A stretch of DNA of 64,000 nucleotides from Planctomycetota bacterium (lineage in GTDB: Bacteria; Planctomycetota; UBA1135; JACQFD01). Location of the stretch: the NCBI GenBank assembly GCA_016792805.1, contig JAEUHX010000076.1, positions 29,541 through 93,540 of the forward strand, read 5' to 3'. Below, piece by piece: positions 334 through 54,207 of this stretch (positions are counted from its first letter, which is position 1; every line of letters begins with the position of its first letter). The notes below the pieces were generated by a model, which saw only the letters and a list, made by a program, of their open reading frames with translations, searched no databases and was not told where the DNA came from. The position numbers and the translations under genes were made by a program.

Positions 334-430
334 CGTCTGCAGTAGGCTTCGATTCCAAGCTGCTTCCCCGCGCCCGCTCGTCCCCGACGCTCACTCGCTC
401 TCGCTTCTGGTGTCTTTCCCGGTGACAGGA

Positions 431-9582: not shown

Positions 9583-9718
9583 TCCAGCGAGGCTACCCAC
9601 AGCTCCGGAGCGCACGGGCGAAAAACCTGTCGCAGAGCCCGCGCGGGAGTTCGTACTAGCCGCATGTGCGCGCCCTGGCTCTGCGAATCGAGGCTCCCGT
9701 CCGCCTCCCGGCGGCGTG

Positions 9719-9743
9719 GGAACGCGTCGGCCGGGTGCTCGTT
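9719..9743 (+). promoter_or_regulatory. Candidate autoregulated ECF-type promoter (GGAAC-N17-GTT)
   Basis: GGAAC lies at 9719-9723, followed by a 17-nt spacer and GTT at 9741-9743 (CGTT at 9740-9743). It is about 120 nt upstream of the sigma start at 9864. Confidence 0.3.
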
Positions 9744-9863
9744 TCGCCAGCCGTGACACCGACGTCGCGCCCCGCCGGAGGGAAGTCTCGCAAGCTCCTC
9801 GCGCCTCGGTCGGACAGAATTGGCGCACCGGTGAACCGAACGCCCCAGCAGCCGCTTGGGAGC

Positions 9864-12663: not shown

Positions 12664-15600
12664 GTGCGTACCTATTCTCTGACCTCGGCGGCGCTTTCTC
12701 TCACACTTCTGTCTGCATGCGCTTCGCGGGAGGCACCGGCCAGCTCTGGGCCCGCAGCCGCGCGAACTGAGACCGCGGCGCGGGCGAGCGGCTTCACTCG
12801 CACCTCCACCAGCGAAGAAGTGTTGTCCTTTCTGAGGGATCTCGCGAAGCAATCCTCCAGGGTACACATCGGTGAGATCGGCAGGTCTTCCGAGGGCCGC
12901 GAGATTCCGCTTGTGGTACTTGCGGACCCGCCCGTGGCCGCAGCGGAGGACGCAAAGAGGAGCGGCAAGCTCATCGTGGCCCTGCTCGGGAACATCCATG
13001 GCGGAGAGGTGGATGGAAAGGAGGCTCTCCTCGAGCTGACTCAAAGCCTCGCGAATGCCGCGACGGGAGACATTCTCAAGAATGTGATTCTATGTGTGAT
13101 TCCAAATTATAACCCCGATGGCAATGACCGGTTTTCGGCGCAGAACCGGCGGGAGCAGGGCGGACCCCATCCCGTCGGTGCCCGGGAGAACGCCGCCGGC
13201 CTGGATCTAAATCGCGACTTCGTCAAGGCGGAGGCCCCGGAGACGCGGGCGCTTCTGCGATTTCTCCGTACTTGGGATCCCGCCGTTCTTGTCGATGCGC
13301 ACACAACCAACGGATCCCTGCACCGAAACCTCATTACCTATGCCGGTCCGAAGCACCCGGCGGGAGATCGTCGCGTTATTCAGTTTGTGCGCGAGCGGAT
13401 GCTCCCCGGTCTCCAAAGCACCATGGCCTCCGTCCACGGGATCTCCACCGGTCCCTACGGGTTCTTCTCCAATGGGCGGACTCAGTGGGTCACGTTTCCC
13501 GACGAGCCCCGATTCGGAACCAATTATGTCGGGCTTCGCAATCGAATCTCGATCCTCTGCGAATCGTACAGCTATGCGAGCTTTGAAGATCGCGTGCGAG
13601 GTTCGCGGGCGTTCCTGCAGGAATGTGTGAATTTCGCAGGCGCGCACGCTGCGGAGATCAGAGGCCTCGTCGCTGAGGCCGATGCTACGACGGCAGGCGC
13701 GGCGAGCGCTGGCGGCTCCGTGGCGCTTCGAACCGTGGTGCGCCCCTTCGAGCCGAAGATTACGATTCCGGGGTTTCGGGAAGGCGACGGTCCCGACCGG
13801 GGCGAGCCGCGCGATCTCGAAGTCTCCTTCGTCGATGACTTTGTGCCGGTGAAGTCGTCGGTATTGCCCCGGGCGTATCTATTGCCGTCGGACTCGAAAG
13901 CCGCAGTGGAACTCCTGCAGCGCCACGGCATCCCTGTTGAGATTCTTCGGGAAGATTTGGATCTCACCATCGAACGCTCGATCGTTGAGAAGTGCGTTCA
14001 GTCGGCGCAGGAGTTCCAGAAGCACAAGCTGCTTCAGCTGGAGACTTCCCGGAAGGCCGAGGTGCGCCTTGCCCGAGCGGGGTCCTTTGTGGTGCGCACG
14101 GGCCACTCCCTCGGAGTGCTCGCGAGCTATCTCCTCGAGCCCGAGTCGGAGGACGGGCTCCATGCATGGGGACTCCTCGGAGAGCGATTCGAAGCCGGTA
14201 CGGATCTCCCCATATGGAGAGTGCCGAATGCAACAGCCATGCTCACGACGGCCTATCGGCCTCTCGAGGAGGACCGCACTCTGCGAAAGCGGATCACCTT
14301 CGAGCTTCTGTATGAGAGGCCCGATCCTCCGCAGTTCCAGGGCGGTGCACACGGAATCGAAGGCTGGTGCGAAGACGGCGAGCACTTCTTACAGAGAAAG
14401 GAAGGGCGGATGTGGAAAGTGAATGCTGCAAGCGGCGCCGCCGAACTCTTCGGAGGCGATGCCGCGGAGATGGCGCGCGCGCTGGAGAAAGTTTCGCCGG
14501 CAGCGGCAAAGGCGCTGCGCGACTCGGGCGGAGCAACTGCTGTGTGGAGCAGCTCTCGCGAAGCTGTTTTCTTCGACTACGCAAACGATCTGTATTACTG
14601 CCGCACCGACGGGAAGGGGGCAGCGCGGCTCACTCAGACGCCCGACGCGGAGGAGGAGGTCGCGAGCTTCAGCCCCGATGGGAAGCTCATCGCCTTCGTC
14701 CGGGCAAATAATCTATTTGTTGTAGACGTTCTGACGCAGAAGGAGAAATCGCTCACGACGGGCGGACATGACCGGCTCCGGTTCGGGAAGGCCGACTGGG
14801 TCTACTTCGAGGAGCTCTTCAACCGCAGCTGGAAGGCCTATTGGTGGAGTCCGGATTCGAAGCGTCTCGCGTGGCTTCGCTCCGACTCGGCGGATGTTCC
14901 CACGTATACGCTCGTGAATGACGTGGGGCCGAAGCTCGAACTCCAGGCGGTCGCCTACCCTCGCGTCGGAGAGCCCAACCCCGTCGTCGACGTTCAGGTC
15001 GGAGATGTGGATTCCGGCGCCGTACGGACGCTCGATCTCTTGCCGTACCCGGCGAAGGATCGGCTCGTCACAGCCGTCGGCTGGTGGCACGACGGAGCTG
15101 CGTTGTTCACTTGCGTTCAGAATCGCGAGCAGACATGGCTCGATTTCATGGCGTTCGGCGCGGATCAGACCGCCGGAACGAAGCTGCTCCGCGATTCGAC
15201 GCAAGCCTGGATCGAATCGCCTCAGGTGAAGTTCCTGGAGGACGGCAGCTTCCTGCTGAGCAGTGAACGCACAGGCTGGCAGCATCTATACCGTTACTCG
15301 CGCGATGGCATCCTGCGCCACGCCGTGACGAGCGGGGAGTGGGAGGTTCAGTCGATCGAGCGAGTCGACGAGAAGGGAGGATTTGTGTATTTCGTCGGCA
15401 CGAAGGACGACCCTCTCGCGCCCAATCTGTATCGAGCCCGCCTCGACGGCTCCGGCGTCGAGCGGCTCACCCAGGAAGCCGGCGCGCACACGATCCGATT
15501 CAGCCCCCGCGGGCCCTGGATCATGGACACGGTCTCGCGGCGAGACGCGACTCCGCGCACGGTGCTTCTCTCTCTCGACGGCACTCCCGTCCGCACTCTC

Positions 15601-16401
15601 GACGCCAATCCCGTTTATGTGCTCGAAGAGTATGAGTTCGGAACTGAGCGATCGATTGAGATTCCGTGCTCCGACGGCGGCGTGATTCCCGCCACGCTCC
15701 TACTTCCCGCCGATTTCGATCCGACGCGGAAGTACCCCGTCTGGTTCAAGACCTACGGCGGCCCCCATGCGCCGACGATCGCGCAGCGATGGGACGCGGC
15801 TCGTCCGCTCGAGGAGGCACTGGTCAACAGCGGCATTTTGGTGTTTCGCGCAGATCCGCGGAGCGCGAGCGGACGCGGCGCAGTGTCCGCATGGAGATGC
15901 TATAAAAAGCTTGGCGTCTCCGAACTCGCCGATGTCGAGATCGCCATCCGATGGCTCATCGCGCATCACCCCTTCGTGGATGCGAGCCGCATTGGTATGG
16001 AAGGCCACAGCTTCGGCGGCTTCCTTACCGCCTATGCGCTCACCCATAGTGATCTTTTCGCCGCAGGCATCGCCGGTGCTCCCGTCACCGACTGGCGGCT
16101 TTACGATTCGATTTATACCGAGCGTTATATGCTGACTCCACAGACCAACGCGCAGGGGTATGAATCTACTTCTGTTCTCTCCGCCGCAAAGCAGCTCCGA
16201 GGCAGACTTCTCCTCCTGCATGGACTGCTCGACGACAACGTACATCCGCAGAACTCCACGCAACTGATCCAGGCACTTCAGACGGCCGGGAAGCAGTTCG
16301 AGTTCATGGCCTATCCGCAGGCTCGGCATGGCATTCGCGGGAAGCACTACCAGCGGCTCAAGTGGGATTTTATCCAGCGTTCGCTGCGCGCTGCGGGCTA
16401 G
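12664..16401 (+). CDS. Lipoprotein fusion: M14 zinc carboxypeptidase domain plus DPP-IV-type S9 serine peptidase (beta-propeller and alpha/beta hydrolase)
   Basis: The lipobox is LTLLSA-C after a GTG start. M14 motifs are NIHGGEVDG (His codon 12997-12999, Glu codon 13006-13008), NPDGNDRF and DAHTTNG. The S9 triad context is GHSFGG (Ser codon 16009-16011), LLHGLLDDNVH and YPQARHGI. There is no stop or frame change between the halves. Confidence 0.85.
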   Translation: MRTYSLTSAALSLTLLSACASREAPASSGPAAARTETAARASGFTRTSTSEEVLSFLRDLAKQSSRVHIGEIGRSSEGREIPLVVLADPPVAAAEDAKRSGKLIVALLGNIHGGEVDGKEALLELTQSLANAATGDILKNVILCVIPNYNPDGNDRFSAQNRREQGGPHPVGARENAAGLDLNRDFVKAEAPETRALLRFLRTWDPAVLVDAHTTNGSLHRNLITYAGPKHPAGDRRVIQFVRERMLPGLQSTMASVHGISTGPYGFFSNGRTQWVTFPDEPRFGTNYVGLRNRISILCESYSYASFEDRVRGSRAFLQECVNFAGAHAAEIRGLVAEADATTAGAASAGGSVALRTVVRPFEPKITIPGFREGDGPDRGEPRDLEVSFVDDFVPVKSSVLPRAYLLPSDSKAAVELLQRHGIPVEILREDLDLTIERSIVEKCVQSAQEFQKHKLLQLETSRKAEVRLARAGSFVVRTGHSLGVLASYLLEPESEDGLHAWGLLGERFEAGTDLPIWRVPNATAMLTTAYRPLEEDRTLRKRITFELLYERPDPPQFQGGAHGIEGWCEDGEHFLQRKEGRMWKVNAASGAAELFGGDAAEMARALEKVSPAAAKALRDSGGATAVWSSSREAVFFDYANDLYYCRTDGKGAARLTQTPDAEEEVASFSPDGKLIAFVRANNLFVVDVLTQKEKSLTTGGHDRLRFGKADWVYFEELFNRSWKAYWWSPDSKRLAWLRSDSADVPTYTLVNDVGPKLELQAVAYPRVGEPNPVVDVQVGDVDSGAVRTLDLLPYPAKDRLVTAVGWWHDGAALFTCVQNREQTWLDFMAFGADQTAGTKLLRDSTQAWIESPQVKFLEDGSFLLSSERTGWQHLYRYSRDGILRHAVTSGEWEVQSIERVDEKGGFVYFVGTKDDPLAPNLYRARLDGSGVERLTQEAGAHTIRFSPRGPWIMDTVSRRDATPRTVLLSLDGTPVRTLDANPVYVLEEYEFGTERSIEIPCSDGGVIPATLLLPADFDPTRKYPVWFKTYGGPHAPTIAQRWDAARPLEEALVNSGILVFRADPRSASGRGAVSAWRCYKKLGVSELADVEIAIRWLIAHHPFVDASRIGMEGHSFGGFLTAYALTHSDLFAAGIAGAPVTDWRLYDSIYTERYMLTPQTNAQGYESTSVLSAAKQLRGRLLLLHGLLDDNVHPQNSTQLIQALQTAGKQFEFMAYPQARHGIRGKHYQRLKWDFIQRSLRAAG

Positions 16402-16567
16402 CTGCCAAGCCCTTTCGCGTTCCGGCAGGCGAGCGTACGATCGAGGGCGCGTCGAGCCGCTTCGGACGAGTCAAGGCGTCGTCCCCTGTGATCCCTCGAG
16501 GCTCGGCGTCTCGCGGCGCGAGGCCTTTTCTCGCTCCCGAGCCCGTTCTCATGCCTCCACCCCGAGC

Positions 16568-18817
16568 ATGCGCATCGCCGCTCTCGGCGGCTTCGCCGCC
16601 GCGTTCTTTTGTTTCGTTGCACCGGCATCGGCACAACTGCTTTCAGTGTCCACCGATGTCCCAAAGGCGATCCCCGACAATAACCCGGCTGGGATCCAGT
16701 CGTCTCTGACGGTCGGCGCGCCCGGCGCCTTCATCGGCGCGATCTACGTCGAAGTAGACATCACGCACACTTATCAGGGAGATCTTGGAGTTCAACTCGT
16801 GCACCCCGACGGGACGGTGGTTGCGCTGCACTCCAACACCGGCGGAAGCGCGGACAACGTGCAAGAGGTGTTCAAGGTGACCTCTCTGTCGGGGAAGCCC
16901 GCCTCCGGTGCTTGGACGCTTCGTGTGCAGGACACTGCCAACATTGACATCGGCACGCTCAACGCATGGTCCCTTGCATTTGTCGGTTCGGTTACCGAGG
17001 TCTCATCGACCGACGTGCCGAAGTCGATACCTGACAATAATCCGACGGGAGCGACGTCGCTCACGACGATCAATCTCCCCGCGCAGCAGCTTGCTGCCGT
17101 CTACTGCCGAGTCGATATCACCCATACCTACATCGGCGATCTTAATATTACGCTCACCCATCCGGGAGGCCCTGTCGCGAGTCTGTGGGCCAATCAGGGT
17201 GGGGGTGTGGACAATCTGCACAAGATTTTCGACGTAACGTCGCAATTCGGCGCGCTGAGTGCGAACGGAACGTGGTCGCTCTCTGTGATCGACAGCGCAA
17301 ACATCGACATCGGAACGATCGACAACTGGACGCTGATTTTCCTCTACTCGGCGACGGTCGAACTCGGTCCGCCGCAATATGTGAGCGTCGGTGACGGGCC
17401 CACCTCGGTGGCCGCAGGCGATATCAATCATGACGGTCTCCTCGACCTCGTGACGGCTAACACGATCAGCAACACCGTGTCGGTGTCTTTCCAGGGGCCG
17501 GCTGGCGTCTTCGCCGCGGGCGGCGCCGGAGTTCCCGTCGGTGCGTCGCCGCGCTCGGCGCTGACGGCCGATTTCACCTCCGACACGTTCGGCGAAATTG
17601 TGGTCGTCTCCTCCGATGCCCACAGTGCCACCGTGCTGCAATCGGTGGGTCCGTTCTTTCTTCCGACGACGGTGCTGCTCGGAGCGGGCACAGCGCCCTT
17701 CGATGTCGTGGCGGCGGACTTCAATCTCGACGGGAACCTTGATTTCGCATCCGCCAACAAGAATACGGGCACAATCACACGAGTCTTCGGCGGCGGCGCC
17801 GCCCATACCTATTCGCCGCAGCCGCAGATCGGTGCCGGCGGCTCGGGCACGGTCGATCTCTCCGTCGGAGACCTGAACCTCGACGGCGCGCCCGACCTCG
17901 TGGCCGCGAATTTCTCGGGCGTGTCGATCGGCGCGTTGCTGAACTCGGGCACAGGCGCGTTTGCTCCTGCAGTTTCTGTGAGCACTTCCACTCCGGGGCC
18001 GAGCAGCGTAGAGGCTGCCGACATGAATGGAGACTCGCTGCTGGATCTCGTGACAATGAATGGAGGCATTCCGACCATTCATTTCGGAGCAGGCGCGACG
18101 GCCTTCGGCCCGGCGACCACAGTTCCAACCACGGCGAGCGGATTCAAGTGTGGTGCCGTCGATCTCAATGGCGACGGCTACCTTGATATGCCCATCGTCG
18201 ATCCGCTTGGCACAGTAAACGTGCTTATGGGCGTCGGCGGCGCGGTGTTCACTTCGGGCACCCAGATCCTGACTGGCGGGCTGGTCTCGGACGTGCTCGC
18301 CGCGGACCTCAACAGCGATGGGTTCATTGATATCGCTCTGGCGCAGCCGATGGGCGGTGGCAACGATCGCGTTTCAATTGCGCTTAATCAAACTGTTGCA
18401 ACCCGCGTGGGCGATTTCGGCACCGGCTCGTTCGGCTGCGGAGGCATGCTGGGCTTCGGCAGCAATTCCATCCCGGCAGTGGGAAACGGCGCCCTGAAAT
18501 TCGTGGCAACGAACGCTCCTGCGAACTCCCTCGGCGTCTGTATCATCACGGACGCTGCGGATATCCCCGGCAGCGACCAGCTTTTCTTGAACTTGCTGCT
18601 GCACGTCAATCTGTTTGCTTCGACGTCGATCTACGCGTTTGACATGCCGAGCGATCGCAACGGCACGGCAATCGTTCCGGTGCCGCTGCCGAGCGATCCG
18701 CTGCTCATCAACGCGCTGTTCTTTGGGCAGGCGATCTTCGTGGAGCCCGCCGCCTGCAGCGGCGCGCTTGTTGGATTGGTGAGCACGCGCGGCGGATCGA
18801 TTGTGATCCAGCCGTAG
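16568..18817 (+). CDS. Secreted protein with two proprotein-convertase P domains, FG-GAP repeats and the recurrent C-terminal domain
   Basis: The signal peptide MRIAALGGFAAAFFCFVAPASAQ starts at ATG 16568. Two P-domain blocks are present (VDITHTYQGDLGVQLVHPDGTVVAL; VDITHTYIGDLNITLTHPGGPVASL). FG-GAP loops include GDINHDGLLDL, DFNLDGNLDF, DLNLDGAPDL, DMNGDSLLDL, DLNGDGYLDM and DLNSDGFIDI. The tail is ...VPLPSDPLLINALFFGQAIF.... Confidence 0.85.
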   Translation: MRIAALGGFAAAFFCFVAPASAQLLSVSTDVPKAIPDNNPAGIQSSLTVGAPGAFIGAIYVEVDITHTYQGDLGVQLVHPDGTVVALHSNTGGSADNVQEVFKVTSLSGKPASGAWTLRVQDTANIDIGTLNAWSLAFVGSVTEVSSTDVPKSIPDNNPTGATSLTTINLPAQQLAAVYCRVDITHTYIGDLNITLTHPGGPVASLWANQGGGVDNLHKIFDVTSQFGALSANGTWSLSVIDSANIDIGTIDNWTLIFLYSATVELGPPQYVSVGDGPTSVAAGDINHDGLLDLVTANTISNTVSVSFQGPAGVFAAGGAGVPVGASPRSALTADFTSDTFGEIVVVSSDAHSATVLQSVGPFFLPTTVLLGAGTAPFDVVAADFNLDGNLDFASANKNTGTITRVFGGGAAHTYSPQPQIGAGGSGTVDLSVGDLNLDGAPDLVAANFSGVSIGALLNSGTGAFAPAVSVSTSTPGPSSVEAADMNGDSLLDLVTMNGGIPTIHFGAGATAFGPATTVPTTASGFKCGAVDLNGDGYLDMPIVDPLGTVNVLMGVGGAVFTSGTQILTGGLVSDVLAADLNSDGFIDIALAQPMGGGNDRVSIALNQTVATRVGDFGTGSFGCGGMLGFGSNSIPAVGNGALKFVATNAPANSLGVCIITDAADIPGSDQLFLNLLLHVNLFASTSIYAFDMPSDRNGTAIVPVPLPSDPLLINALFFGQAIFVEPAACSGALVGLVSTRGGSIVIQP

Positions 18818-41493: not shown

Positions 41494-41521
41494 TGCCGGC
41501 TTTTGTGGTTTCTTTGCGGCG

Positions 41522-42211
41522 ATGTCCGGTATGCCTCGAGCGGCTTGGTGGGCTGCGGCGATCGCAGCGCTGGTGCTCGCGGCGATCTCGCTTTTCGTTT
41601 GGCTCTCGTGGCCGCATCTCCCCGATCCGCTCTCGGCCTCTGAAAGAGCTCGAGAGCTCGGCCGAAACCGGCTGCGCGCGCTGCTGCGGGCCCACGGAGC
41701 CGACGCCAGCGCTTCGGTTTGGCGGGAGACGGAATCGCTGCGGGCGGTTGTTCTGGAGGATGAGTGGAGCCGTAAGCAGCTCTCGGGGGCTCAACTCGTG
41801 CTCTGGCCCGCCTCCGATCGCCTCGTCCTGGGCTCGACCGATACGTTGGCCTTTGAACTTCGCTCCCTCCGCTACCTGGCGTCGCTGCCGTTCAAATTCG
41901 CGGACCCCGGGGTGGTCGTTGCCGAGATGGAGCCGGAGCCTGCCACGGGATATCCGCGGCTGCTGATTGGCTTCGAGCCGAGACCCGGCGCTCCCGAGGG
42001 CGACCGCTATGCCGCCATGATCCACCCGGAGACGGGGCGGCTCGCGGCGCTGGAATACCGCCCCACGGAGGTCTTCTGGCCCGCCGGCGTACGCGTGCGC
42101 TACCGATGGATCGAGGGTCCGCGCGGCCTGCTGCTCCCCGAGTCGATCGTGGCCTACACCGTGCCCTTCGGCCTCAGAACCCACTCGATCCGTCTCCGGA
42201 GCTGGAGGTAA
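41522..42211 (+). CDS. Membrane-anchored hypothetical protein
   Basis: The N-terminal TM is AAWWAAAIAALVLAAISLFVWL, followed by a beta-rich periplasmic part. I recognise no motif. Confidence 0.55.
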   Translation: MSGMPRAAWWAAAIAALVLAAISLFVWLSWPHLPDPLSASERARELGRNRLRALLRAHGADASASVWRETESLRAVVLEDEWSRKQLSGAQLVLWPASDRLVLGSTDTLAFELRSLRYLASLPFKFADPGVVVAEMEPEPATGYPRLLIGFEPRPGAPEGDRYAAMIHPETGRLAALEYRPTEVFWPAGVRVRYRWIEGPRGLLLPESIVAYTVPFGLRTHSIRLRSWR

Positions 42212-42348
42212 CCACCCTCTGGACGGGAGCGCTCCGACGCAGCAGACTTTCCCCTTGCCAGATCGGCGATTCCCGTTGGAGACACCGGGGCGCCCTGGCA
42301 ATCCCCGACCGCCGGCTTTCTCCCGTCGGCAGCCCCCGAACACGAAGG

Positions 42349-45300
42349 ATGGGAAATCACGTGGCACGAGACGCAGCGATCCAGGATCTCGAGCACCAAT
42401 TTTGGGCTTGGCGTTTTGTGGTATTTGGGGCGAAGCTCGGAAAGACTCCGGAGGTGCGTCCCGAAGAGAGCGCCGAGGTTCTCGCGGAGAGATGGTTCAT
42501 CTTGGGGCAGAGCCTGCTCATGGGGCTGGCGCAGTTCATCATTCGCGATGAGCATCTCGCGGAAGAGGCGGTGGCGGATGCGCTGAGGAAGTCCAAGGAA
42601 GCTGCCGAAGGGTTCGACGGCCGGTGTCCTGTCTATTGGTGGCTTCGGAAAATTGTTCGGCGTGCTTCGATCCACCAGGCCAACAAACGGAGCCGTCGAC
42701 AGGACGCGATTCCGTTCGCCGACGCGCCGGTCGAGATCATTGCTGCTGACCGCGATCGATCCTTGGTGAGCGCGGCAGATCTCGAAGCGGCCATTGAGGC
42801 CATTATTGCGAGTCTGCCCGAGAAGCAGGCCACTGCCATTCATCTCCTGCTCTTTCAGGAGATGACCATTTCCGAGATTGCACAATTGCTTGGCGATAAG
42901 TACGATGCGGTCCACTCTCGCGTGTACGAAGCGAAGCTCAAGCTTCGAGATGAGCTCAGGCGCAAGGGGTTTTCGCTTGCGGTGCTTGGGGAGGTTCCGC
43001 TCTTGGCGAATGCGATGCGATCCGTCAAGCCGAGCAGCGAAGCGACTGCGCGGATCGCGGCTTTGGCGCGCGCGCCGATGCGAAGAGGTGTCATCCGTCA
43101 GCCCTGGTTCATGGGCTCCATGGCGGCGGCGTCGGCTGCGGCTCTGCTGGCATCGATCAGTGTGCATGCATGGGCGATCGATGCTTCGGGCGGGTCACAG
43201 AGCATCCGTGGCGACGTATCCCACGAGAATGGAAATCAGCCCACAAATCCAAGTGTCGCAACGATGCCTGGCGTCGGCGGCAAGACGAGCCCGGCGCAGG
43301 CCGTCGCATCCAGCGGCGGCTACGGGGTTTCGGGGCGGATCCTGATGCCGCAATCACAAAACGGAGTGCCCGTGCCGGTCGCGGCCGGAGAAGTCCGCTA
43401 TCGCGACAACGACGGCAATGAACGGCTCCTGGCGGCCATTGTGAACGGCGAGATCGTGTCCGTTTCGGACTTGCCGAAGGGCCTGAAACCGGGGCGGATC
43501 ATTTTCATCGATAGCGCGAAGAGCGCGGCGCGCGTCGAATTTGTAAGGGCGCCAGGCCCCAATACTGAGATTTCACTTTTTCCGGGATGGAATGATCTCG
43601 GCGTGCTGACGCTCGATCCCATTGCTTGGGTGAGTGCAAGTGTGATGTATTCCAATGGCACTCCTGCGCCGGGAATGTACATTGCATTCTCCTCGGATCT
43701 GAAATCTCCCGCGGCGGGGCGTTTCAACGGTACCGTGCGTACAGATGGCGATGGGCACGCACGGTTTGCCGTTCCGGCCGGTGTTCAGACGAAGATTCGC
43801 GTCTACGCAGCCGATTACACCTCTGAGCCTCAGATCATGACTCTGGCTCAGGGCCAAGAAGTGGGAGCGGCTCCGTTCACTCTTCCCGATCTCGTGAAGG
43901 CGAAGTACCGATTCGTGACTCCCGCGGGCGGAAGCATTCATGCGCCGATGCTGCGGAAGAAGTCGGACGGCCTCGTGACGGCGAATCTCCAGGTACAGCC
44001 AAGCTCCGATCCGGAGGTGGTGGAGGTGTTGCGCAAGCCGAATGTCCCGCTTGCGATCGATCTCTGGTTGACGCCGAAGGACTTCGTTGCTGTGACTTTG
44101 CCTCCGCTTTCGGAATCGGTCTCCGAGCCGATTCCCATCGCCGTTGCCGCGGACACTTGGACTGCGAGAATTGCGCGCCCCACGGCTGTGAGCGAAGGCG
44201 AGCTCGTTACAGTTGTTATCCCGGGCGCAGCGCGGCCGATCTTTGAGAAGGAGGTTCCATTCGGAGCTTTCCTCGATCTCTCACTGCCTCGTCCGGAGTC
44301 CGCAAACAGCCCGCTCACGGTCTGGGTCCTCAAGGACGGCCACCCCGTTGGGATCTGGAATTGGACTGTCGCACAAAAAACATGGGCCGAGGGACAGGCC
44401 CCCGCAGAGCTCTCAAAGCCCGAAGTCACCTGGGCGCCTCAGGTTCTCGACGCGGAGGGATCGCCGATTCCCGGCGCGACCGTCGGCGCTCGATTGGGCG
44501 ATCGGACGGTCTATGCGGAGGTCACCAATACCGAAGGACGAGCAACGCTCTCGGCGATTCCGTCGAGCGAGCTCACCTTCTATGTCGTTGCTCCCCAGTA
44601 TGCGCCGTGGATTCTGGAGCCGCCTCATGCGGGATCGAGCCTTCCGGCGACCGTTCCGCTCGCCCGGGTATCGTGGCTCGAGCTGCGACAGCTGAGTGAA
44701 GACCACGGATCGGAAAAGTGGTCTTTCACTCCGCCGGAGGAGATTCTTGAAGGGAATCGGGCGAACGACCGTGGAACGAGGATCTTCCGCGTGCCTACCG
44801 GTGCCGTTGTCAGAATTCCTATTTGGGTTACGGGAGGCCGGTTCGGTCGGGCGCGCCAGTCCGGTCCCCTCGATACCTCGGTGGTCGACTCGATCGATCT
44901 CGCCTTCGTACCGGGGGAGACCATCACGCTCGATCTCACCCAGGGGCTAACGGATGGGGTGGCTTCGATGGTGGCCAGCACGGGCGGGCTCTCTCCCGCC
45001 AATTTGGCGTGGGGCGCATTGTCCACGGACGACAAATTCCTGGCCGTCGGGCGAATTCAGAATGACGGTTCTTTCGACATTCGTGGGTTCGTGGACGGGG
45101 CCGTGGTGGATGTCTTTCCGATGGCTATGGGCGCGCTGAGCCCCGGCTCGAATCCCGAGGAGGTCAGGCGACGCATTGAAGCTCTCCGCGCGAACCCGCT
45201 GACTCGGGAATCCGTTGCCACGATCAAGATCCGAGCGGGAAGGTCGGGACAGTCCGCCGGGAATCCGGTGGGTGTCGATTTCTCGTCCATTGCCGCAACA

Positions 45301-45582
45301 GTTGCACTCCGCCCGGACGCGCTTCTTCCCGGAGAAAGTTTGGATCTGCGCGTCGTGCCCAATGTTTTCTCCTCCGTGAATGAATCGTTCCGAGCTCGTT
45401 ACGAGTTACAAAATGGTGATGAGGTGCAATTGGCGGCGGGCGCTTATGTGGTGAGACTGCGGCTGCAATCGCCACGGGCGATTCCGGGATACACCCTCGT
45501 GTCCCAGCCCGGATTGGCAGGCTCGGCAGTCTTCGAAAGATCGATGGAGGTGAAGCCCGGCGAGCGAATCGAGCTGCCTTAG
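42349..45582 (+). CDS. ECF sigma-factor domain fused to a TM helix and a large extracytoplasmic beta-sandwich repeat region
   Basis: Sigma region 2 is present (DEHLAEEAVADAL...PVYWWLRKIVRRASIHQANKRSRRQ), as is region 4 (LPEKQATAIHLLLFQEMTISEIAQLLGDKYDAVHSRVYEAKLKLRDEL). A hydrophobic helix WFMGSMAAASAAALLASISVHAWA lies at about nt 43104-43172. About 800 aa follow with CarboxypepD_reg-like units (VLDAEGSPIPGATVGARLGDRTVYAEVTNTEGRATL). I place the start at ATG 42349. Confidence 0.7.
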   Translation: MGNHVARDAAIQDLEHQFWAWRFVVFGAKLGKTPEVRPEESAEVLAERWFILGQSLLMGLAQFIIRDEHLAEEAVADALRKSKEAAEGFDGRCPVYWWLRKIVRRASIHQANKRSRRQDAIPFADAPVEIIAADRDRSLVSAADLEAAIEAIIASLPEKQATAIHLLLFQEMTISEIAQLLGDKYDAVHSRVYEAKLKLRDELRRKGFSLAVLGEVPLLANAMRSVKPSSEATARIAALARAPMRRGVIRQPWFMGSMAAASAAALLASISVHAWAIDASGGSQSIRGDVSHENGNQPTNPSVATMPGVGGKTSPAQAVASSGGYGVSGRILMPQSQNGVPVPVAAGEVRYRDNDGNERLLAAIVNGEIVSVSDLPKGLKPGRIIFIDSAKSAARVEFVRAPGPNTEISLFPGWNDLGVLTLDPIAWVSASVMYSNGTPAPGMYIAFSSDLKSPAAGRFNGTVRTDGDGHARFAVPAGVQTKIRVYAADYTSEPQIMTLAQGQEVGAAPFTLPDLVKAKYRFVTPAGGSIHAPMLRKKSDGLVTANLQVQPSSDPEVVEVLRKPNVPLAIDLWLTPKDFVAVTLPPLSESVSEPIPIAVAADTWTARIARPTAVSEGELVTVVIPGAARPIFEKEVPFGAFLDLSLPRPESANSPLTVWVLKDGHPVGIWNWTVAQKTWAEGQAPAELSKPEVTWAPQVLDAEGSPIPGATVGARLGDRTVYAEVTNTEGRATLSAIPSSELTFYVVAPQYAPWILEPPHAGSSLPATVPLARVSWLELRQLSEDHGSEKWSFTPPEEILEGNRANDRGTRIFRVPTGAVVRIPIWVTGGRFGRARQSGPLDTSVVDSIDLAFVPGETITLDLTQGLTDGVASMVASTGGLSPANLAWGALSTDDKFLAVGRIQNDGSFDIRGFVDGAVVDVFPMAMGALSPGSNPEEVRRRIEALRANPLTRESVATIKIRAGRSGQSAGNPVGVDFSSIAATVALRPDALLPGESLDLRVVPNVFSSVNESFRARYELQNGDEVQLAAGAYVVRLRLQSPRAIPGYTLVSQPGLAGSAVFERSMEVKPGERIELP

Positions 45583-45915
45583 CAGAAGCCTTTGGCAAGT
45601 GTCATTCGAGCTGCGCACGCGGGCTTTTTGGCGATCTCATCGTTGGACCGCCTCGCCGAACTCGATGCTGCCTTTCGCGCGCATCGTTGCGATGTCGCGA
45701 TCGAAGAACCTCGAAGCGCTTGATTGCAGTCTGTCCGCAGCCCTCCCCCCACTGAAAGGGGCGGCGATCCAGCCCATCGCCGATCGCCGGTGACGGGACG
45801 CGTTTGGTCTTGGTGTCACGGGCGCCCCGAAGGCACGTGACCTCCCGCGCAGACGAATCCTTCCGATGCGCGTGGAGTTCCCGCACACCGATTCCTCGCA
45901 CATGGAGTTATTGCT

Positions 45916-46461
45916 ATGTCTTCGGTGGTCACTCTTCTCGGCTCGGTCTCTCCGGCAACGGCGAGCGCGATGATCGACGGGCTCGCTCCCAAGCTCGGAT
46001 GGTCAACAAAACCGGAGGATATCCTGGGCGCCAAGCTCTGCCTCGACGAAGCCTCGTTTGTAACCATTTTTTCGGTATTTCCCGTTGCGAACGCGGGCGA
46101 GTTTCCCTCGGTCCTGGCGATCAGCGACTTCGGCCAGATCTATAAGTTCGTCGTTACAGGTGCGAGCGCGTCTCTTCCAACGGGAGAGACTGCAACGATC
46201 GTCTCGGCGAGCTATGGAGTCTCGAAGAAGACCAAACATGTGATCTTTCGCCTGACCACACTGGCGGCCTCTGACGGATCCACGAAGGAGGTCAAGGTGT
46301 GCAAGTGTAAGGATGGGGCGGCGGAGGCGTTGCTCGACGGCGATCCGGTTCTCTGCTACGTGGAATGGGTCTGGGTTCCCTTTCCTCGGCCCCTCTGCCT
46401 CAACGACGAGTGCCCCATCGAATGTCGCTTCCAGGAGTCCATCTGCTCTTGTTCCCAATAA
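45916..46461 (+). CDS. Orphan hypothetical protein with a Cys-rich C-terminus
   Basis: A GGAG lies 8 nt upstream of the ATG. No signal peptide is evident. There are 8 Cys in the last 53 aa (CKCKDG...LCYVEW...PLCLNDECPIECRFQESICSCSQ). The antisense ORF 46003..46554 is Arg-rich and unlikely to be real. Confidence 0.55.
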   Translation: MSSVVTLLGSVSPATASAMIDGLAPKLGWSTKPEDILGAKLCLDEASFVTIFSVFPVANAGEFPSVLAISDFGQIYKFVVTGASASLPTGETATIVSASYGVSKKTKHVIFRLTTLAASDGSTKEVKVCKCKDGAAEALLDGDPVLCYVEWVWVPFPRPLCLNDECPIECRFQESICSCSQ

Positions 46462-46846
46462 TCGTGGCTTCCTAGGTTCCAGGGGCTTCGATCGGGTCTC
46501 GTTGTTCTTCGAGCACGTGGTTGGAGAACCGCTCTCCAGCGGTTCGAAGTTCACTTTTCGCGAGATTGAGGAGAGACGCGTGAGGCGTAGCCAAGGAGTT
46601 TCGTCGATCGCGGCTCGACGGTGAGATTGCGAAGAGGGGACGAGAAGCGCCGGAATGAGTCCTTCAGCGGCCTGCCCGGAATCCGCGAAGGAATCCGTTC
46701 TTGCGTTGGCGGCGAGACGCCATTCGCCGAGCGTCAGCTTCGGCGCCGACGAGACGAGCGAACACTTATCGGACGGCGTCCGGCTTCGAACCGCGGCGCT
46801 TTCCCTTCGAGCGCCAGCTCGGTACGGTCATGGGGAACTGCGCCCC

Positions 46847-48331
46847 ATGTTCCGCAAGGTCCTCATCGCCAATCGCGGCGAAATCGCGCTCCGCGTCATC
46901 CGCACCTGCCGCGAGCTCGGAATTCCCACCGTTGCCGTCTATAGCGACGTCGACCGCAACGCCCTCCACGTCCGCATGGCCGAAGAGGCCGTGCGGATCG
47001 GCGCGGCGCCGCCGAGTCAATCGTATTTGAAGGTGGAGGCGATTCTCGATGCGGCGCGCTCCACCGGTGCGCAGGCGATCCACCCCGGCTACGGCTTTCT
47101 GAGCGAGAAGGCACATTTCGCTGAAGCCGTTGAGCAGGCCGGGCTCACGTTTATCGGGCCGCCATCGACGGCAATGCGGCGCATGGGAGACAAGTTGTCG
47201 TCCCGCACCGCCATGGTGAAGGCTGGCGTTCCGGTCGTTCCCGGGCTCACGGAGCCGGTGGCCGACCTGGACGCTGCCGTTCGGGAGGCGGCCAAGATCG
47301 GCTACCCCGTGGCGCTGAAGGCGGCCGGCGGCGGCGGTGGAAAGGGGATTCGCCGCTGCGCGGATCCGAAGGATCTCCCGTCGGCTTTCCGCACGGCGAG
47401 CGGCGAAGCGCTCTCTGCCTTTGGCGACGGCAGGATCTACATCGAGCGCTATCTCGATCGCCCTCGGCACATCGAGGTGCAGATCGTCGGCGACAAGCAC
47501 GGCAATGTTGTGGCCGTCGGCGAGCGCGAGTGCACGATTCAGCGGCGCCACCAGAAGCTGCTCGAGGAGGCGCCGTCGGTCATTCTCGATGGCGCGTCAC
47601 GCCAGGCGATTCGCGAAGCGGCGGTGAAGGCGGCCAAGGCCGTCGGATACCACAATGCCGGAACTGTGGAATTTCTCTGGAGCGGGGGTCAGTTCTTCTT
47701 CCTTGAGATGAACTGCCGCCTCCAGGTGGAGCACCCGGTGACGGAGATGGTCTACAGCGTCGACCTCGTGCGTGAGCAGCTCCGCGTGGCCGCCGGAGAG
47801 AAGCTCACACTTCGCGACGGCATGGAGCCGCGCGGGCATGCGATCGAAGTGCGCGTGAACGCGGAGGATCCCGACAAAGGATTCCTGCCCTCCATCGGCA
47901 AAGTTGCCAATATTCGGCTGCCCGGAGGACCGTGGGTGCGCGTCGACTCGGGGCTCTACCGCGGATATGAGGTCACGCCCTACTACGACTCGCTTCTCGC
48001 AAAAGTGATCGCTTGGGGAGCTGACCGCGCCCAGGCGATCGCGCGTATGGAGCGGGCGCTGGCGGAGCTGCACGTCGGCGGCGTGAAGACGACGGCGCCG
48101 CTGGCGCTTCGCGTGCTGCGCGATCCGAGCTTTCGCGCGGGAGATTTTGACACTCACTTTTTGGAGACTTTCACACCCCCGCGAAACGCGGAGCGCGAGG
48201 AGGTGGCGGCGCTGGTGGCGGCGGTTCACAGACACCTCGGCACGTCGCGGCAGGCGCTGAAGGCGCGCAGCCAGGGGGCAGCGAGCGGCGGATTGTCGCC
48301 TTGGGTCGCGTCGTGGAGGGTGGGCCGATGA
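46847..48331 (+). CDS. accC: Biotin carboxylase subunit of acetyl/propionyl-CoA carboxylase
   Basis: The start is MFRKVLIANRGEIALRVIRTCRELGI at ATG 46847. Motifs are GGGGKGIR and FLEMNCRLQVEHPVTE. Confidence 0.92.
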   Translation: MFRKVLIANRGEIALRVIRTCRELGIPTVAVYSDVDRNALHVRMAEEAVRIGAAPPSQSYLKVEAILDAARSTGAQAIHPGYGFLSEKAHFAEAVEQAGLTFIGPPSTAMRRMGDKLSSRTAMVKAGVPVVPGLTEPVADLDAAVREAAKIGYPVALKAAGGGGGKGIRRCADPKDLPSAFRTASGEALSAFGDGRIYIERYLDRPRHIEVQIVGDKHGNVVAVGERECTIQRRHQKLLEEAPSVILDGASRQAIREAAVKAAKAVGYHNAGTVEFLWSGGQFFFLEMNCRLQVEHPVTEMVYSVDLVREQLRVAAGEKLTLRDGMEPRGHAIEVRVNAEDPDKGFLPSIGKVANIRLPGGPWVRVDSGLYRGYEVTPYYDSLLAKVIAWGADRAQAIARMERALAELHVGGVKTTAPLALRVLRDPSFRAGDFDTHFLETFTPPRNAEREEVAALVAAVHRHLGTSRQALKARSQGAASGGLSPWVASWRVGR

Positions 48332-51896: not shown

Positions 51897-52382
51897 GTGG
51901 ACCCCACTCAACGCTTCGAGCAGCTCGCGGAGCTTGCCGGCCCGGTGCTTTCGGCCGTCATACGCCGCTTCGTGCGCGACTCGGGCGCCGCCGAGGAGGT
52001 TCTCCAGGATGTGCTCCTCGAGGTGTGGCGGAGGCTCGACGACCTCGACCCCAAGCGCGACCCCATGCCCTACCTCCGTAAGCTCGCTGTGAGCCGCTCC
52101 ATCGACTGGCTTCGGCGCCGGCCGGGGTTTGCTCTCGATGGCGCGAGCGCCGCCGAGGAACTCGCGGCGCCGGTTCCAGCGGCGACGCGCCTCGAGGCCG
52201 ACCTGAGCGCGCTGCCCGACCACGAGAGGGCCGCGATTTTATTGTATTATCAGGAACAGCACTCGGTCGCCGAGATCGCAACGATTCTGCAGGCGTCGGT
52301 CTCGGCTGTGAAAGTGTGGCTTTTCCGCGCTCGGGCGAAGCTTCGCCCGCAATTCGAGCGCGAGGCGCGAGGATCGAAATGA
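51897..52382 (+). CDS. ECF sigma factor (compact, 161 aa)
   Basis: The start is GTG 51897. Region 2 is present (AEEVLQDVLLEVWRR...YLRKLAVSRSIDWLRRR), as is region 4 (LPDHERAAILLYYQEQHSVAEIATILQASVSAVKVWLFRARAKLR). Confidence 0.85.
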   Translation: MDPTQRFEQLAELAGPVLSAVIRRFVRDSGAAEEVLQDVLLEVWRRLDDLDPKRDPMPYLRKLAVSRSIDWLRRRPGFALDGASAAEELAAPVPAATRLEADLSALPDHERAAILLYYQEQHSVAEIATILQASVSAVKVWLFRARAKLRPQFEREARGSK

Positions 52383-52852
52383 GCGAACTCGGCTCCTCTG
52401 ACTGCGCCCACTGGGCCGCCCTGCTCCGAGGAGAGGGCGAGGACGCCCGCCTCGGATCGGAGGCGGCCGCGGCCCTCAGCGCCCATCTATTGCATTGTGA
52501 GTTTTGTGCTCGAGAACTCGAGGCCGACCGACATCTGTCGCGGGAACTGGCGTCGATCACCATCGAGCCCCTCGACCGTGAGCTCGTTCGCCTCGTCGCG
52601 CGTCGCGTTGCACGCGCTCAGCGCGGGAGCCGGTGGCGGCTCGGGCTCACCCTGGCCGCCGCCGCGCTGGCAATGTCCGTGGCGCTTGATCGCAGCCTTG
52701 CGCCGCGCCGTGAAGCCCTGCCGGTGCGGCCAGCCTCGCCCGCCGTGAAGACAGCCTTCGAGGAGCGCGTGGTGCGCGCCGGCTCCGCGGGTCTGCGCTC
52801 GACTCTCTCTATGTCACGCCGAACTCGTTACTCATCGGGAGTTCAAAGATGA
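52379..52852 (+). CDS. Anti-sigma factor (zf-HC2 type)
   Basis: An ATGA overlap links it to the sigma gene. HLLHCEFC matches H-x3-C-x2-C. There is one TM helix (WRLGLTLAAAALAMSVAL). Confidence 0.8.
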   Translation: MSELGSSDCAHWAALLRGEGEDARLGSEAAAALSAHLLHCEFCARELEADRHLSRELASITIEPLDRELVRLVARRVARAQRGSRWRLGLTLAAAALAMSVALDRSLAPRREALPVRPASPAVKTAFEERVVRAGSAGLRSTLSMSRRTRYSSGVQR

Positions 52853-54207
52853 AAGCTTTCGGATATATGATTCTCGCAGCTTCCGCATTCTCGGCCGTCG
52901 CGGTCGCGCAGGATGCGCAGAATGCGCCTGTGGGATTCTCTGGGACCGGGCAACGGCAGGCGGCGCCAGCTCCCACCCTCCCTCAGTCCGCCGTCGTAGC
53001 CCGTTACAGAATGCCCTATGGCGATCTGAAGCGGTTCGACCCTCCGGCGCTCGGGCGTGAGAGCGTGAAATCGGCGGCGGTGCCGCGTCTTGCGGCGAGC
53101 TCCGCCGCGGCGCCCGAGCGCCTCACGCTGTTCGAGTCGGTGCTGGCGAATCGGATTCTTGAACTTCCCCGCGTGCGCGCCGTGGTCTTCGGCCGAGAAT
53201 CGACCGTGCGTCGCGGCGTGCTCACGGCTCCCTCGGACGCAGCGCCCATCGCCTCGGAGACCTCGGATCAGCCATTTCTCGAGGTGCGCGCCGACGACCG
53301 TGAGTTCGAGCCGCAAGTGCAGCGGATCTTGAATGAGTATCAATCTTTGGCATCGCAGCGATTCGATCTGGAGACGATCTTCGTAACGAGTTCGGCGCCT
53401 TCGCTCGCGATCGATGGCGCCGCGGTGTCCTACGTCTCCGATTCCGAGTTCGAGCAGGTGCGAGCCGCTGACTCGAAGGAGCCCCGGGACCTCCTCTCCG
53501 CTCCCCGGCTTACGCTCTCTCAGGGGAGCGTCGGGAATATTGCAGCTCTCAATCAGCGGGCATTTGTTACGGGCTATGACAAGCAATCGATCGGCTCGTC
53601 GACGATTCTCGATCCGGTGGTGGAAGTGTTGCAGACTGGCCTCGTTCTCGAGGCATCCGTCGTGCAAATTCCGGGTGCGAACGGCGGAGTGTGCCAGGTG
53701 GCCTTGACTCTCGCCGACGTCCTCGACCCCGTGCCGACGGCGGAACTCAAGGTCGCTCCGAGCCTTGCGCCGGTGACGATCCAGCTTCCCGAGGAGAATC
53801 GCACGACCTGGAAGTCCGAACCGTTGCACTTCAATGATGCCAGGCACGCATTCCGCGTGACCGGGATTCGTTACCTTGGACGCAAGGCCGCCGCCGCGCC
53901 CATGGGCAGCGATGCCACAGAAGCTCATGAGTACAAATCGCTCGAATTCTACTTTCGCGTGATGCCGGCTTCGGCGCAGTCCGGAGCCGGCGAATGGGGC
54001 CGGGTGCTGCTTCTCGACGGGGACCGGCGCCGAGTCGTGGTCCGACGCTCGGAGAGCTCGGCCGGCGCTGCCAGCGACCGCGCCACGACTGTCACGGAGA
54101 CGGGGCGCCCGCCTTCCGTGCTCGAGCTGGAGACCGACTCCGGCGCGATCCTGATCTATCGCGTGGTCGAGGGGCCGATGCCGCGCGTCGACGATCCCGT
54201 GCGATAG
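52849..54207 (+). CDS. Secreted protein with a divergent secretin-like core (tentative)
   Basis: An ATGA overlap links it to the anti-sigma gene. The signal peptide is MKAFGYMILAASAFSAVAVAQ. The segment LLSAPRLTLSQGSVGNIAALNQRAFVTGYD...VEVLQTGLVLEASVVQIPGANGGV...PVTIQLPEENRTTWKSEPLHFNDARHAFRVTGI...KSLEFYFRVMPA follows the GspD/PilQ/CpaC secretin-domain pattern. Confidence 0.45.
   Translation: MKAFGYMILAASAFSAVAVAQDAQNAPVGFSGTGQRQAAPAPTLPQSAVVARYRMPYGDLKRFDPPALGRESVKSAAVPRLAASSAAAPERLTLFESVLANRILELPRVRAVVFGRESTVRRGVLTAPSDAAPIASETSDQPFLEVRADDREFEPQVQRILNEYQSLASQRFDLETIFVTSSAPSLAIDGAAVSYVSDSEFEQVRAADSKEPRDLLSAPRLTLSQGSVGNIAALNQRAFVTGYDKQSIGSSTILDPVVEVLQTGLVLEASVVQIPGANGGVCQVALTLADVLDPVPTAELKVAPSLAPVTIQLPEENRTTWKSEPLHFNDARHAFRVTGIRYLGRKAAAAPMGSDATEAHEYKSLEFYFRVMPASAQSGAGEWGRVLLLDGDRRRVVVRRSESSAGAASDRATTVTETGRPPSVLELETDSGAILIYRVVEGPMPRVDDPVR

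Follow-up and report, generated by a model that had tools for sequence, protein, structure and literature searches.

A divergent ECF-type sigma domain fused to a predicted membrane anchor and a large orphan beta-rich domain in a Planctomycetota bacterium

Introduction

The DNA analysed here (the window) is a stretch of 64,000 nucleotides from contig JAEUHX010000076.1 of the Planctomycetota assembly GCA_016792805.1 (positions 29,541 to 93,540 of the forward strand). At positions 42,349-45,582 lies a gene encoding a fusion protein of 1077 amino acids, in which a sigma domain of the extracytoplasmic function (ECF) type is followed in the same frame by a hydrophobic span and a long C-terminal domain. 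Of all the classes of ECF regulation, that in which the sigma factor is fused to a membrane-spanning extension is understood least, and IutY is the sole member with experimentally characterised proteolytic activation that we found in the literature. An earlier reading of the locus, made from the letters of the DNA and their open reading frames (the sequence-only reading), had proposed that this protein is a trans-envelope signalling device in one polypeptide, and the analysis described below follows up that proposal.

Results

A single reading frame encodes sigma domain, span and C-terminal domain

The frame is uninterrupted from 42106 through the stop codon at 45580-45582. Translation begins either at ATG 42349 (MGNHVARD...) or at GTG 42361, four codons downstream; NCBI model MBL8696248.1, annotated 'MAG: sigma-70 family RNA polymerase sigma factor [Planctomycetes bacterium]', takes the GTG. 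A start at one of these codons is supported because conservation with a second allele begins exactly at MGNHVARD and frame-breaking single-nucleotide indels lie upstream. From its N-terminus the protein comprises the sigma domain, a juxtamembrane segment of 47 residues, its sole hydrophobic helix, a disordered linker and about 755 residues of beta-rich sequence (Table 1). It has one cysteine in all, C93.

The second allele (allele B; P0002, P0019, P0020 and P0021) is 58-59% identical to that of the window (allele A), has the identical architecture and aligns with it over all 1077 residues with zero gaps. Identity between the alleles at the first, second and third codon positions is 0.69, 0.78 and 0.48, and the coding-type pattern of substitution is kept in sliding windows over the junction of the sigma and membrane parts (42950-43250). 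Ratios of nonsynonymous to synonymous divergence (dN/dS, method of Nei and Gojobori) fall between 0.14 and 0.35 in all segments of the fusion with finite dS, with sigma4 at 0.14, sigma2 at 0.18, the ectodomain at 0.26-0.27, the span at 0.29 and the juxtamembrane segment at 0.31; in the periplasmic linker dS is saturated. The sequence-only reading had placed the sigma and membrane parts in a single open reading frame, and that is what both alleles contain: the fusion is genuine, one polypeptide under purifying selection across the junction.

An error of assembly or sequencing, by which two genes were joined through a frameshift or a lost stop codon, has in its favour the prior expectation that metagenome-assembled genomes contain errors, and the ECF52 ortholog of S. 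clavuligerus is split by a stop codon (PMC5826349). Here, the same unbroken frame recurs in two allele clusters on at least eight contigs from three sources (NCBI, Logan and JGI). The gapless allele and the purifying selection over the junction exclude a frameshift artefact, and we regard the probability of an error of this kind as negligible.

Word-indexed protein searches returned one homolog of the fusion and one of the 229-residue protein encoded upstream of it. Scans of genome and metagenome contigs gave no further relatives, and a plasmid search gave no match; the sole metagenome match (locus L084) is an ordinary Bacteroidetes-type pair of ECF sigma and anti-sigma factors. A survey of homologs for the same fusion, as the sequence-only reading had proposed, finds the architecture shared by the second allele and, in these searches, by no relatives beyond it.

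Table 1. Features of the fusion gene and of the block in which it lies (window coordinates)
Feature	Residues	Coordinates	Strand	Basis or remarks
Fusion gene, with stop codon	1-1077	42349..45582	+	ORF calling; alignment with second allele
N-terminal extension before the canonical ECF core	1-44	42349..42480	+	77% identical between alleles; helix predicted
Sigma region 2, divergent	45-120	42481..42708	+	Pfam r2 match below cut-off; A76 and R105 substitutions
Sigma2-sigma4 linker	121-145	42709..42783	+	Low pLDDT
Sigma region 4	146-205	42784..42963	+	Sigma70_r4_2 above gathering score
Cytoplasmic juxtamembrane segment, including Met244 (ATG 43078-43080)	206-252	42964..43104	+	77% conserved; no Pfam match
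Hydrophobic span WFMGSMAAASAAALLASISVHAWA, ending in A-W-A	253-276	43105..43176	+	Hydropathy, both alleles
S/G/A/P-rich periplasmic linker	277-322	43177..43314	+	20% identical between alleles, equal length
Orphan beta-rich C-terminal domain	323-1077	43315..45579	+	56% identical between alleles
Weak CarboxypepD_reg-like beta-sandwich	429-507	43633..43869	+	19.6 bits, below cut-off
CarboxypepD_reg-like beta-sandwich	698-756	44440..44616	+	32.5 bits alone
Upstream co-diverging gene, 229-aa orphan		41522..42211	+	Strong N-terminal signal anchor, Kyte-Doolittle 2.39; no Cys
Intergenic region, candidate promoter or 5' leader		42212..42348	+	Conserved blocks at 42219-42235 and 42277-42292
Downstream co-diverging gene, 181-aa orphan		45916..46461	+	C-terminal Cys-rich region in both alleles
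Hyperdivergent three-gene block		41500..46850		Between carboxyltransferase and biotin carboxylase genes

The N-terminal domain belongs to the ECF family

The NCBIfam model TIGR02937 (sigma70-ECF) matches the fusion protein at 52.8 bits (cut-off 42.9), residues 61-203 corresponding to model positions 18-165 of 165, and Pfam Sigma70_r4_2 matches residues 148-199 at 32.2 bits (cut-off 25.7). A phmmer search of the PDB sequences returned ECF sigma factors only, with AlgU as the best (E = 2e-6). In an AlphaFold model of residues 1-300 both the sigma2 and the sigma4 bundle are confident, with block values of the predicted local distance difference test (pLDDT) of 84-93, as is an extra helix at residues 2-29, N-terminal to the usual ECF start; the sigma2-sigma4 linker and residues 211-252 are modelled with low confidence. 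All Foldseek matches of this model are ECF sigmas (SigE, SigH, AlgU, RpoE, SigW, SigK and CnrH). By its core of sigma2 plus sigma4, which lacks sigma3 and sigma1.1, and by the family models, the N-terminal domain belongs to the ECF (group 4) family.

We also compared individual residues with those of 12 canonical ECFs, which included two from the same window and E. coli RpoE. In 15 columns the canonical proteins show a conservation of 70% or more, and both alleles retain ten of these; W98, L99 and I102 are kept, and so is the helix-turn-helix pattern. Among 5.8 billion proteins searched, the nearest sigma relatives are canonical ECFs, at most 33% identical and of normal length. The fusion protein stays far below the cut-offs of all NCBIfam subfamily and equivalog models (best 51.7 versus 126.4). 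By these comparisons the sigma domain, although of the ECF type, is atypical and divergent.

The predicted membrane anchor has the anatomy of a signal peptide

The hydropathy maximum of the whole fusion protein lies at residues 254-272, where the Kyte-Doolittle 19-mer value reaches 1.68, and 1.72 in allele B, both above the classical threshold of 1.6. This corresponds to the hydrophobic helix that the sequence-only reading had seen at about 43104-43172. The value also exceeds those of two cytosolic controls from the window (1.02 and 1.33) and of the transmembrane segment of a bona fide ZAS anti-sigma factor encoded at 52379-52849 (1.44), and is below those of nearby firm signal anchors (2.1-2.4). 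Net charge in allele A is +5 in the 20 residues before the span and -2 in the 20 residues after it; allele B has a much weaker bias, and on balance the sequence favours an N-in, C-out topology.

Read from the internal Met244, the anchor opens with MRRGVIRQP as its n-region, continues with WFMGSMAAASAAALLASISV as the h-region and closes with HAWA as the c-region, which places Ala at both -3 and -1. The alleles share HAWA, and the next residue is Ile in allele A and Ala in allele B. By these n/h/c features, and by the -3,-1 rule of von Heijne applied directly to the sequence, the segment looks like a textbook Sec signal peptide with a site for signal peptidase I. Immediately after the AWA, identity between the alleles drops from 79% in the span to 20% over the next 46 residues. 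On its cytoplasmic side the span is preceded by the juxtamembrane segment, which is modelled as two short low-confidence helices, is conserved on a par with the sigma domains and, at 47 residues, is too short to be a class I anti-sigma domain.

The C-terminal domain is a beta-rich orphan

Against CarboxypepD_reg (PF13620) the whole fusion protein scores 45.1 bits, the gathering score being 32.3, and the rest of the ectodomain (about 600 residues) is without any Pfam match. About 800 residues of repeats had been proposed for this part of the protein; when the ectodomain is compared with itself by BLASTP, no internal repeats appear, and what remains of that proposal is one significant and one weak CarboxypepD_reg unit. 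Apart from four weak matches to individual immunoglobulin (Ig)-like units, an exhaustive HMMER search with residues 278-1077 against 1.84 billion representatives recovered nothing beyond the cluster of the protein itself. Foldseek matches of the ectodomain model are non-specific chains of Ig-like domains with TM-scores of about 0.1, which we used only for the description 'beta-rich'. Identity between the alleles is 56% in the ectodomain versus 70-79% in the cytoplasmic part, so that the ectodomain evolves much faster.

We rejected the further suggestion that the ectodomain belongs to the same repeat family as a module at 30-34.5 kb of the window. BLASTP against proteins 30067, 31794 and 32868 and four other large secreted proteins of the window gave a best E of 0.27, and no relatives emerged from the HMMER search. 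The link fails because all that is held in common is the generic Pfam fold PF13620, and the match to it is that of a generic fold module and not evidence of a function shared with 30067 or 32868.

The fusion gene lies in a hyperdivergent, probably inserted block

The fusion gene is the central one of three genes located between a carboxyltransferase gene that ends at 41493 and the genes for biotin carboxylase and biotin carboxyl carrier protein, which start at 46847. In 25 of the 37 other genomes fetched (loci L004-L083) biotin carboxylase follows carboxyltransferase within 400 nt, and among these 25 are both other Planctomycetota loci, with gaps of 16 and 176 nt. Because the flanking carboxylase genes are normally adjacent, the intervening block of about 5.1-5.35 kb is best read as an insertion. 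Homologs of the 229-residue protein are confined to the same two lineages as the fusion.

Compared with the syntenic JGI contig L002 (9150-14200), the proteins flanking the block are 97-99% identical, the 229-residue protein is 78%, the fusion 58% and the 181-residue protein 76% identical. Nucleotide identity, about 97% outside the block, drops abruptly at 41500 to about 77%, is 60-77% across the three genes and rises again near 46866, and dS is 0.4-1.6 inside the block versus 0.14-0.47 in the flanks. This divergence may reflect allelic replacement or long-term diversifying selection, which two alleles do not separate. At the borders of the block we saw no convincing flanking direct or inverted repeats and no signs of mobile elements. 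There were no sigma-70-type promoters, terminators were at background level, and searches gave no Rfam matches and no plasmid relatives. Elsewhere on L002 (6401-7009, minus strand), and also on L003, a gene for a protein of 202 residues lies between a GDSL-lipase gene and a gene for 67 residues; tblastn (E <= 1e-5) found no counterpart of it in the window.

Neighbouring genes and intergenic regions

Neither the 229-residue nor the 181-residue neighbour has a match in Pfam, NCBIfam or the PDB. We considered both as anti-sigma factors and rejected them for want of a family or PDB match; moreover, the 229-residue protein has only about ten cytoplasmic residues, too few for an anti-sigma domain, and is therefore not a classical anti-sigma factor. 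The start of the 181-residue protein is uncertain (Met1 or Met19, the latter at 45970). Its Cys-rich pattern, CKC...C...C...EC...C...C.C, is conserved between the alleles. The protein could act as a partner that is secreted and rich in disulfides, or it could bind zinc in the cytoplasm. The sequence-only reading had remarked that no zf-HC2 gene is adjacent, with which these results agree; neither the fusion protein itself nor its neighbours contain an anti-sigma domain that could be recognised.

The intergenic region before the fusion gene (42212-42374 viewed) is conserved as strongly as coding sequence. It holds two conserved blocks, CTGGACGGGAGCGCTCC and TGGAGACACCGGGGCG, the first of which includes a palindrome of 10 nt, GGAGCGCTCC, and a run of 42 nt identical in both alleles spans the start codon of the fusion. 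These upstream blocks do not recur elsewhere in the window, including near 30067 or 45916. Downstream of the fusion gene, a conserved 20-nt element, ACGGGAYGCGTTTGGKCTTG, is found at 45793-45812 (about 4530-4550 in L001), about 100 nt before the gene for the 181-residue protein. It directly follows a GC-rich hairpin located 3' of the fusion gene, in an intergenic region that is otherwise poorly alignable, and may be a promoter. A promoter motif common to the two intergenic regions, ACGGGA-N14-17-GWC, was discarded since it has five matches versus 5.03 expected.

Other loci in the window

Two further ECF loci are present in the window. One consists of a canonical ECF gene (51897-52379), a gene for a ZAS-type anti-sigma factor with the motif HLLHCEFC (52379-52849) and a gene for an orphan of 398 residues (53011-54204). 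Between the two genomes the sigma is 96% identical, the anti-sigma factor only 80% and the orphan 75%, so that the region has a second case of envelope-sensing partners that evolve fast. A third ECF sigma is encoded at about 9850-10511 (plus strand) inside an open reading frame at 9666-10511, which partly overlaps a longer mechanical minus-strand frame (8095-10077); it scores 57.7 bits with Sigma70_r2 and 56.7 bits with Sigma70_r4_2.

The window is also rich in exported peptidase-like proteins. The gene at 12664-16401 (plus strand) encodes 1245 residues with M14 zinc carboxypeptidase, DPP IV N-terminal and S9 prolyl oligopeptidase domains, an unusual fusion of three peptidase modules. Large, probably secreted proteins are encoded at 16328-18817 and 38-3343, both on the plus strand; one of the two has proprotein-convertase P-domains and FG-GAP repeats, and the other is fungalysin (M36)-like and contains both a propeptide motif of the FTP type and a CarboxypepD_reg unit that matches weakly.

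Discussion

A proposed self-contained pro-sigma activated by regulated proteolysis

The explanation that we consider best, and hold with about even confidence, is that the fusion protein is a single-pass, N-in/C-out, self-contained pro-sigma that is activated by regulated proteolysis. The divergent ECF-type sigma, composed of sigma2, sigma4 and an extra N-terminal helix, would face the cytoplasm and would be held at the inner membrane by the weakly hydrophobic, Ala/Ser-rich span. The span and everything after it would descend from a once-independent secreted beta-sandwich protein that was captured together with its Sec signal peptide. In the periplasm, behind the disordered linker, the orphan domain of about 755 residues, made of beta-sandwich-like modules, would act as the module that receives the input or determines stability. 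The tether, perhaps with the conserved 47-residue juxtamembrane segment and the N-terminal helix, would block productive formation of the holoenzyme. A site-1 cut would then fall in or beside the linker; because the weakly hydrophobic span, rich in Ala, Ser and Gly, closes on its outer side with a conserved AWA, signal peptidase I, the site-1 enzyme for RsiV and RsiP, is a specific candidate for a cut at AWA276. A site-2 cut of the S2P/RseP type inside the helix-destabilised span would finally free the sigma to bind RNA polymerase. Tethering followed by proteolytic release is the most economical mechanism for a protein of this anatomy.

Several observations weigh against this proposal. With respect to the membrane part, the span is only marginally hydrophobic (Kyte-Doolittle 1.68, with a crude Hessa-scale sum of +2.3, set against +5.1 for the span of the ZAS anti-sigma factor), and the charge bias of its flanks is far weaker in allele B (+3/+2). 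For the ectodomain, the AlphaFold model computed from two sequences is nearly all beta-strand and of low confidence, with a pLDDT of 43. Cleavage is a prediction from the anatomy of the sequence, no site-2 protease was identified in the window, and motif searches in the window gave no support for a target promoter or regulon of the sigma.

The remaining difficulties concern the sigma domain itself. The sequence-only reading had called both ECF regions 2 and 4, and the models uphold region 4 and the ECF family as a whole; Pfam Sigma70_r2, matching residues 55-117, stays at 18.2 bits below its cut-off of 24. Five of the 15 conserved columns deviate in both alleles: the region-2.2 Gln-Glu is replaced by A76-D77 (A-V in allele B), the region-2.3 Asn by R105 (or Ser), the Arg at position 112 by Asn and the region-4.1 Arg by A161. 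The region-2.2 Gln contributes to core binding in mutational work on sigma70 and sigma32. It is present in 15 of 16 canonical ECFs examined and is A76 in both fusion alleles; the fetched loci supplied four additional independent ECFs, too few to give a frequency for loss of this residue. Given the sub-threshold Sigma70_r2 match and the lost Gln and Asn, binding to RNA polymerase is not assured.

The same deviations, including the loss of the Glu after the near-invariant Gln and of the region-4.1 Arg, would be expected of a decoy or pseudo-sigma, that is, a membrane-tethered sigma mimic whose task would be to titrate some partner, such as an anti-sigma factor, or to serve otherwise as a scaffold. 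PhyR, for example, has a sigma-like domain. The distance to the closest sigma relatives also fits such a role, as does the weak region-2 score when two canonical ECFs of the same window reach 43-58 bits. However, TIGR02937 and Sigma70_r4_2 are both above their cut-offs and the ECF model is covered at full length, there is no PhyR_sigma-like match to the fusion protein in Pfam, the W98/L99 core, the helix-turn-helix pattern and ten of the 15 conserved columns are kept, and at least one ordinary ECF (L084) likewise lacks the Gln. Together with dN/dS of 0.14-0.18 in sigma2 and sigma4, these findings make a decoy rather improbable in our view.

Alternatives for processing and input

With the pro-sigma reading, processing is regulated. 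Processing could instead be constitutive and involve no sensing, in which case the protein would be a bifunctional fusion that signal peptidase always cuts after AWA276 during export. The beta-rich protein would be released as an ordinary periplasmic or surface protein, the stub of sigma and anchor would be cleared or freed constitutively, and the extension would couple the dosage of the sigma to the synthesis or export of its own C-terminal half, not to an external signal. A loose analogy is the export of FlgM, which frees sigma-28. Several features of the anchor are of the kind that this alternative predicts: the sequence from Met244 onward contains every part of a Sec signal peptide, its AXA being conserved, and the span resembles the h-region of a signal peptide more than it does the nearby firm anchors. 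The much faster evolution of the ectodomain points the same way, and a capture scenario for Planctomycetes has been published (PMC7671368). On the other hand, no Shine-Dalgarno-like sequence precedes ATG 43078, and the cutting of an internal signal sequence 250 residues from the N-terminus is not guaranteed. There is also no indel in 1077 residues and the juxtamembrane segment is highly conserved, and this strict conservation of length and of the segment argues that the two halves are coupled in function and not joined by mere accident. We think constitutive processing unlikely, though it is the likeliest of the alternatives.

The regulated pro-sigma also has to be set against a sigma that is active while tethered. 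In the manner of ToxR or CadC, the protein would recruit RNA polymerase at the membrane, and the ectodomain would modulate it by conformation or oligomerisation. No autoinhibitory anti-sigma domain is recognisable, and the 47-residue tether is flexible, both it and the sigma2-sigma4 linker having low pLDDT, as such a mode of action would allow. We found no precedent in the literature for a membrane-bound sigma in holoenzyme (PMC8999054, PMC7826278), and the Ala/Ser/Gly-rich span with its AXA motif resembles the substrates of proteolysis. We regard activity in the tethered state as very unlikely.

The divergence of the block bears on the input. Its extreme and sharply bounded character between near-identical genomes suggests that the signal sensed is under diversifying or frequency-dependent pressure. 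It is conceivable, though we rate it as a long shot, that the three genes form a polymorphic, self-contained signalling cassette whose parts co-diverge as specificity types, like the pherotype loci comQXP and agr, and that the binding of a cognate partner to the ectodomain triggers release of the sigma by signal peptidase. If true, ECF sigmas would have an input logic not described before, and Planctomycetota a new class of envelope signalling that is specific to kin or strain.

Whatever the input, the fusion protein offers a test case of minimal design. An anti-sigma domain is lacking, and should the sigma prove silent when tethered and active when cleaved, the tether alone would suffice for control. 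The conserved AXA site yields a specific and cheap prediction, namely signal peptidase as the site-1 protease. The anchor, moreover, looks like a preserved moment of origin, an intact signal peptide turned membrane anchor, and as such would lend concrete support to the capture of neighbouring genes as the origin of planctomycetal ECF extensions. With no more than two alleles known, both from uncultured organisms, the family is of limited practical impact.

Comparison with known systems

Membrane-spanning fused ECFs are already known, as IutY, as the groups ECF52, ECF48 and ECF53, and among the planctomycetal extensions (PMC7671368, PMC7826278, PMC8999054). IutY of Pseudomonas putida (ECF243) is a sigma and anti-sigma hybrid of cell-surface signalling in one polypeptide, for which trimming by Prc and subsequent cutting by RseP have been shown experimentally (PMC5411451). 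Like the fusion in the topology predicted here, it combines a cytosolic ECF sigma, a single span and a periplasmic domain, and sequential proteolysis is the mechanism we propose. In contrast, IutY has a FecR-type anti-sigma and periplasmic domain and works with the TonB-dependent receptor IutA, whereas our sigma is far more divergent and carries an orphan ectodomain of about 755 residues. No FecR or anti-sigma match was found in residues 206-1077 in Pfam or NCBIfam at E <= 1, and only 47 residues separate sigma4 from the span. No gene for a TonB-dependent receptor lies next door, the neighbours being the two orphans and then the carboxyltransferase and biotin carboxylase genes. The fusion would work like such a hybrid of sigma and anti-sigma factor, but since it lacks both the FecR-type domains and the receptor, it is not of the IutY/ECF243 type.

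Proteolytic release has been predicted or proposed for ECF52, ECF48 and ECF53 of the Actinobacteria, for example SCO4117 (PMC8999054, PMC5826349). Their order of parts is the one predicted for ours, with the ECF core first, then a region that crosses the membrane, a linker of low complexity and, outside the cytoplasm, a domain of the binding type. They are exclusive to Actinobacteria, however; a zinc-finger (ZAS) anti-sigma domain separates their sigma4 from the membrane, their linker is rich in proline, and they carry a carbohydrate-binding module. The planctomycetal fusion has no zf-HC2 (ZAS) match in Pfam, a single Cys, an S/G-rich linker and no carbohydrate-binding module, and for these reasons, and as a member of another phylum, does not belong to ECF52, ECF48 or ECF53.

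The ECF57/WD40-type sigmas of Planctomycetes (Pinto & da Fonseca 2020, PMC7671368; PMC7826278) come from the same phylum and also have a large C-terminal extension that is poorly conserved relative to sigma2 and sigma4. Such extensions have been proposed to arise when an inserted sigma gene captures the gene downstream (PMC7671368), and capture best explains the extension here too, the fusion block likewise being inserted between normally adjacent genes. The ECF57 proteins differ in having WD40-like repeats and a conserved Cys pair that links sigma2 and sigma4; Pfam gives no WD40 or PQQ match in the fusion protein, which, without the repeats and the Cys pair, is not an ECF57. Unlike the ECF57 extension, this one is predicted to be extracytoplasmic because the captured piece starts with an intact signal peptide.

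In its membrane part the fusion resembles RsiV and RsiP, the anti-sigma factors of sigmaV and sigmaP, which are type II membrane proteins with an AXA-type site just outside the span. Signal peptidase is the demonstrated site-1 protease for both (PMC4183432, PMC6066255, PMC8844934), and its cut starts the regulated intramembrane proteolysis that frees the ECF sigma; in the fusion a cut at AWA276 is only predicted. The Firmicutes systems differ in that sigma and anti-sigma are separate proteins and the ligand is known (lysozyme, or a beta-lactam sensor). Closer to home, the canonical ECF/ZAS pair of the window has an Ala-rich, weakly hydrophobic single span like the anchor of the fusion. There, sigma and anti-sigma are encoded by separate genes, the sigma scores 42.9 bits for r2 and 54.2 bits for r4_2, and the anti-sigma factor has an H-x3-C-x2-C motif and a short periplasmic tail. 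What sets the fusion apart from all of these systems is the combination of no anti-sigma domain, a signal peptide as the anchor, an orphan ectodomain, an atypical sigma2 and a fast-diverging inserted cassette in one lineage. The anatomy of the anchor and the insertion between normally adjacent genes fit the published capture scenario (PMC7671368) and support an origin of the fusion by capture.

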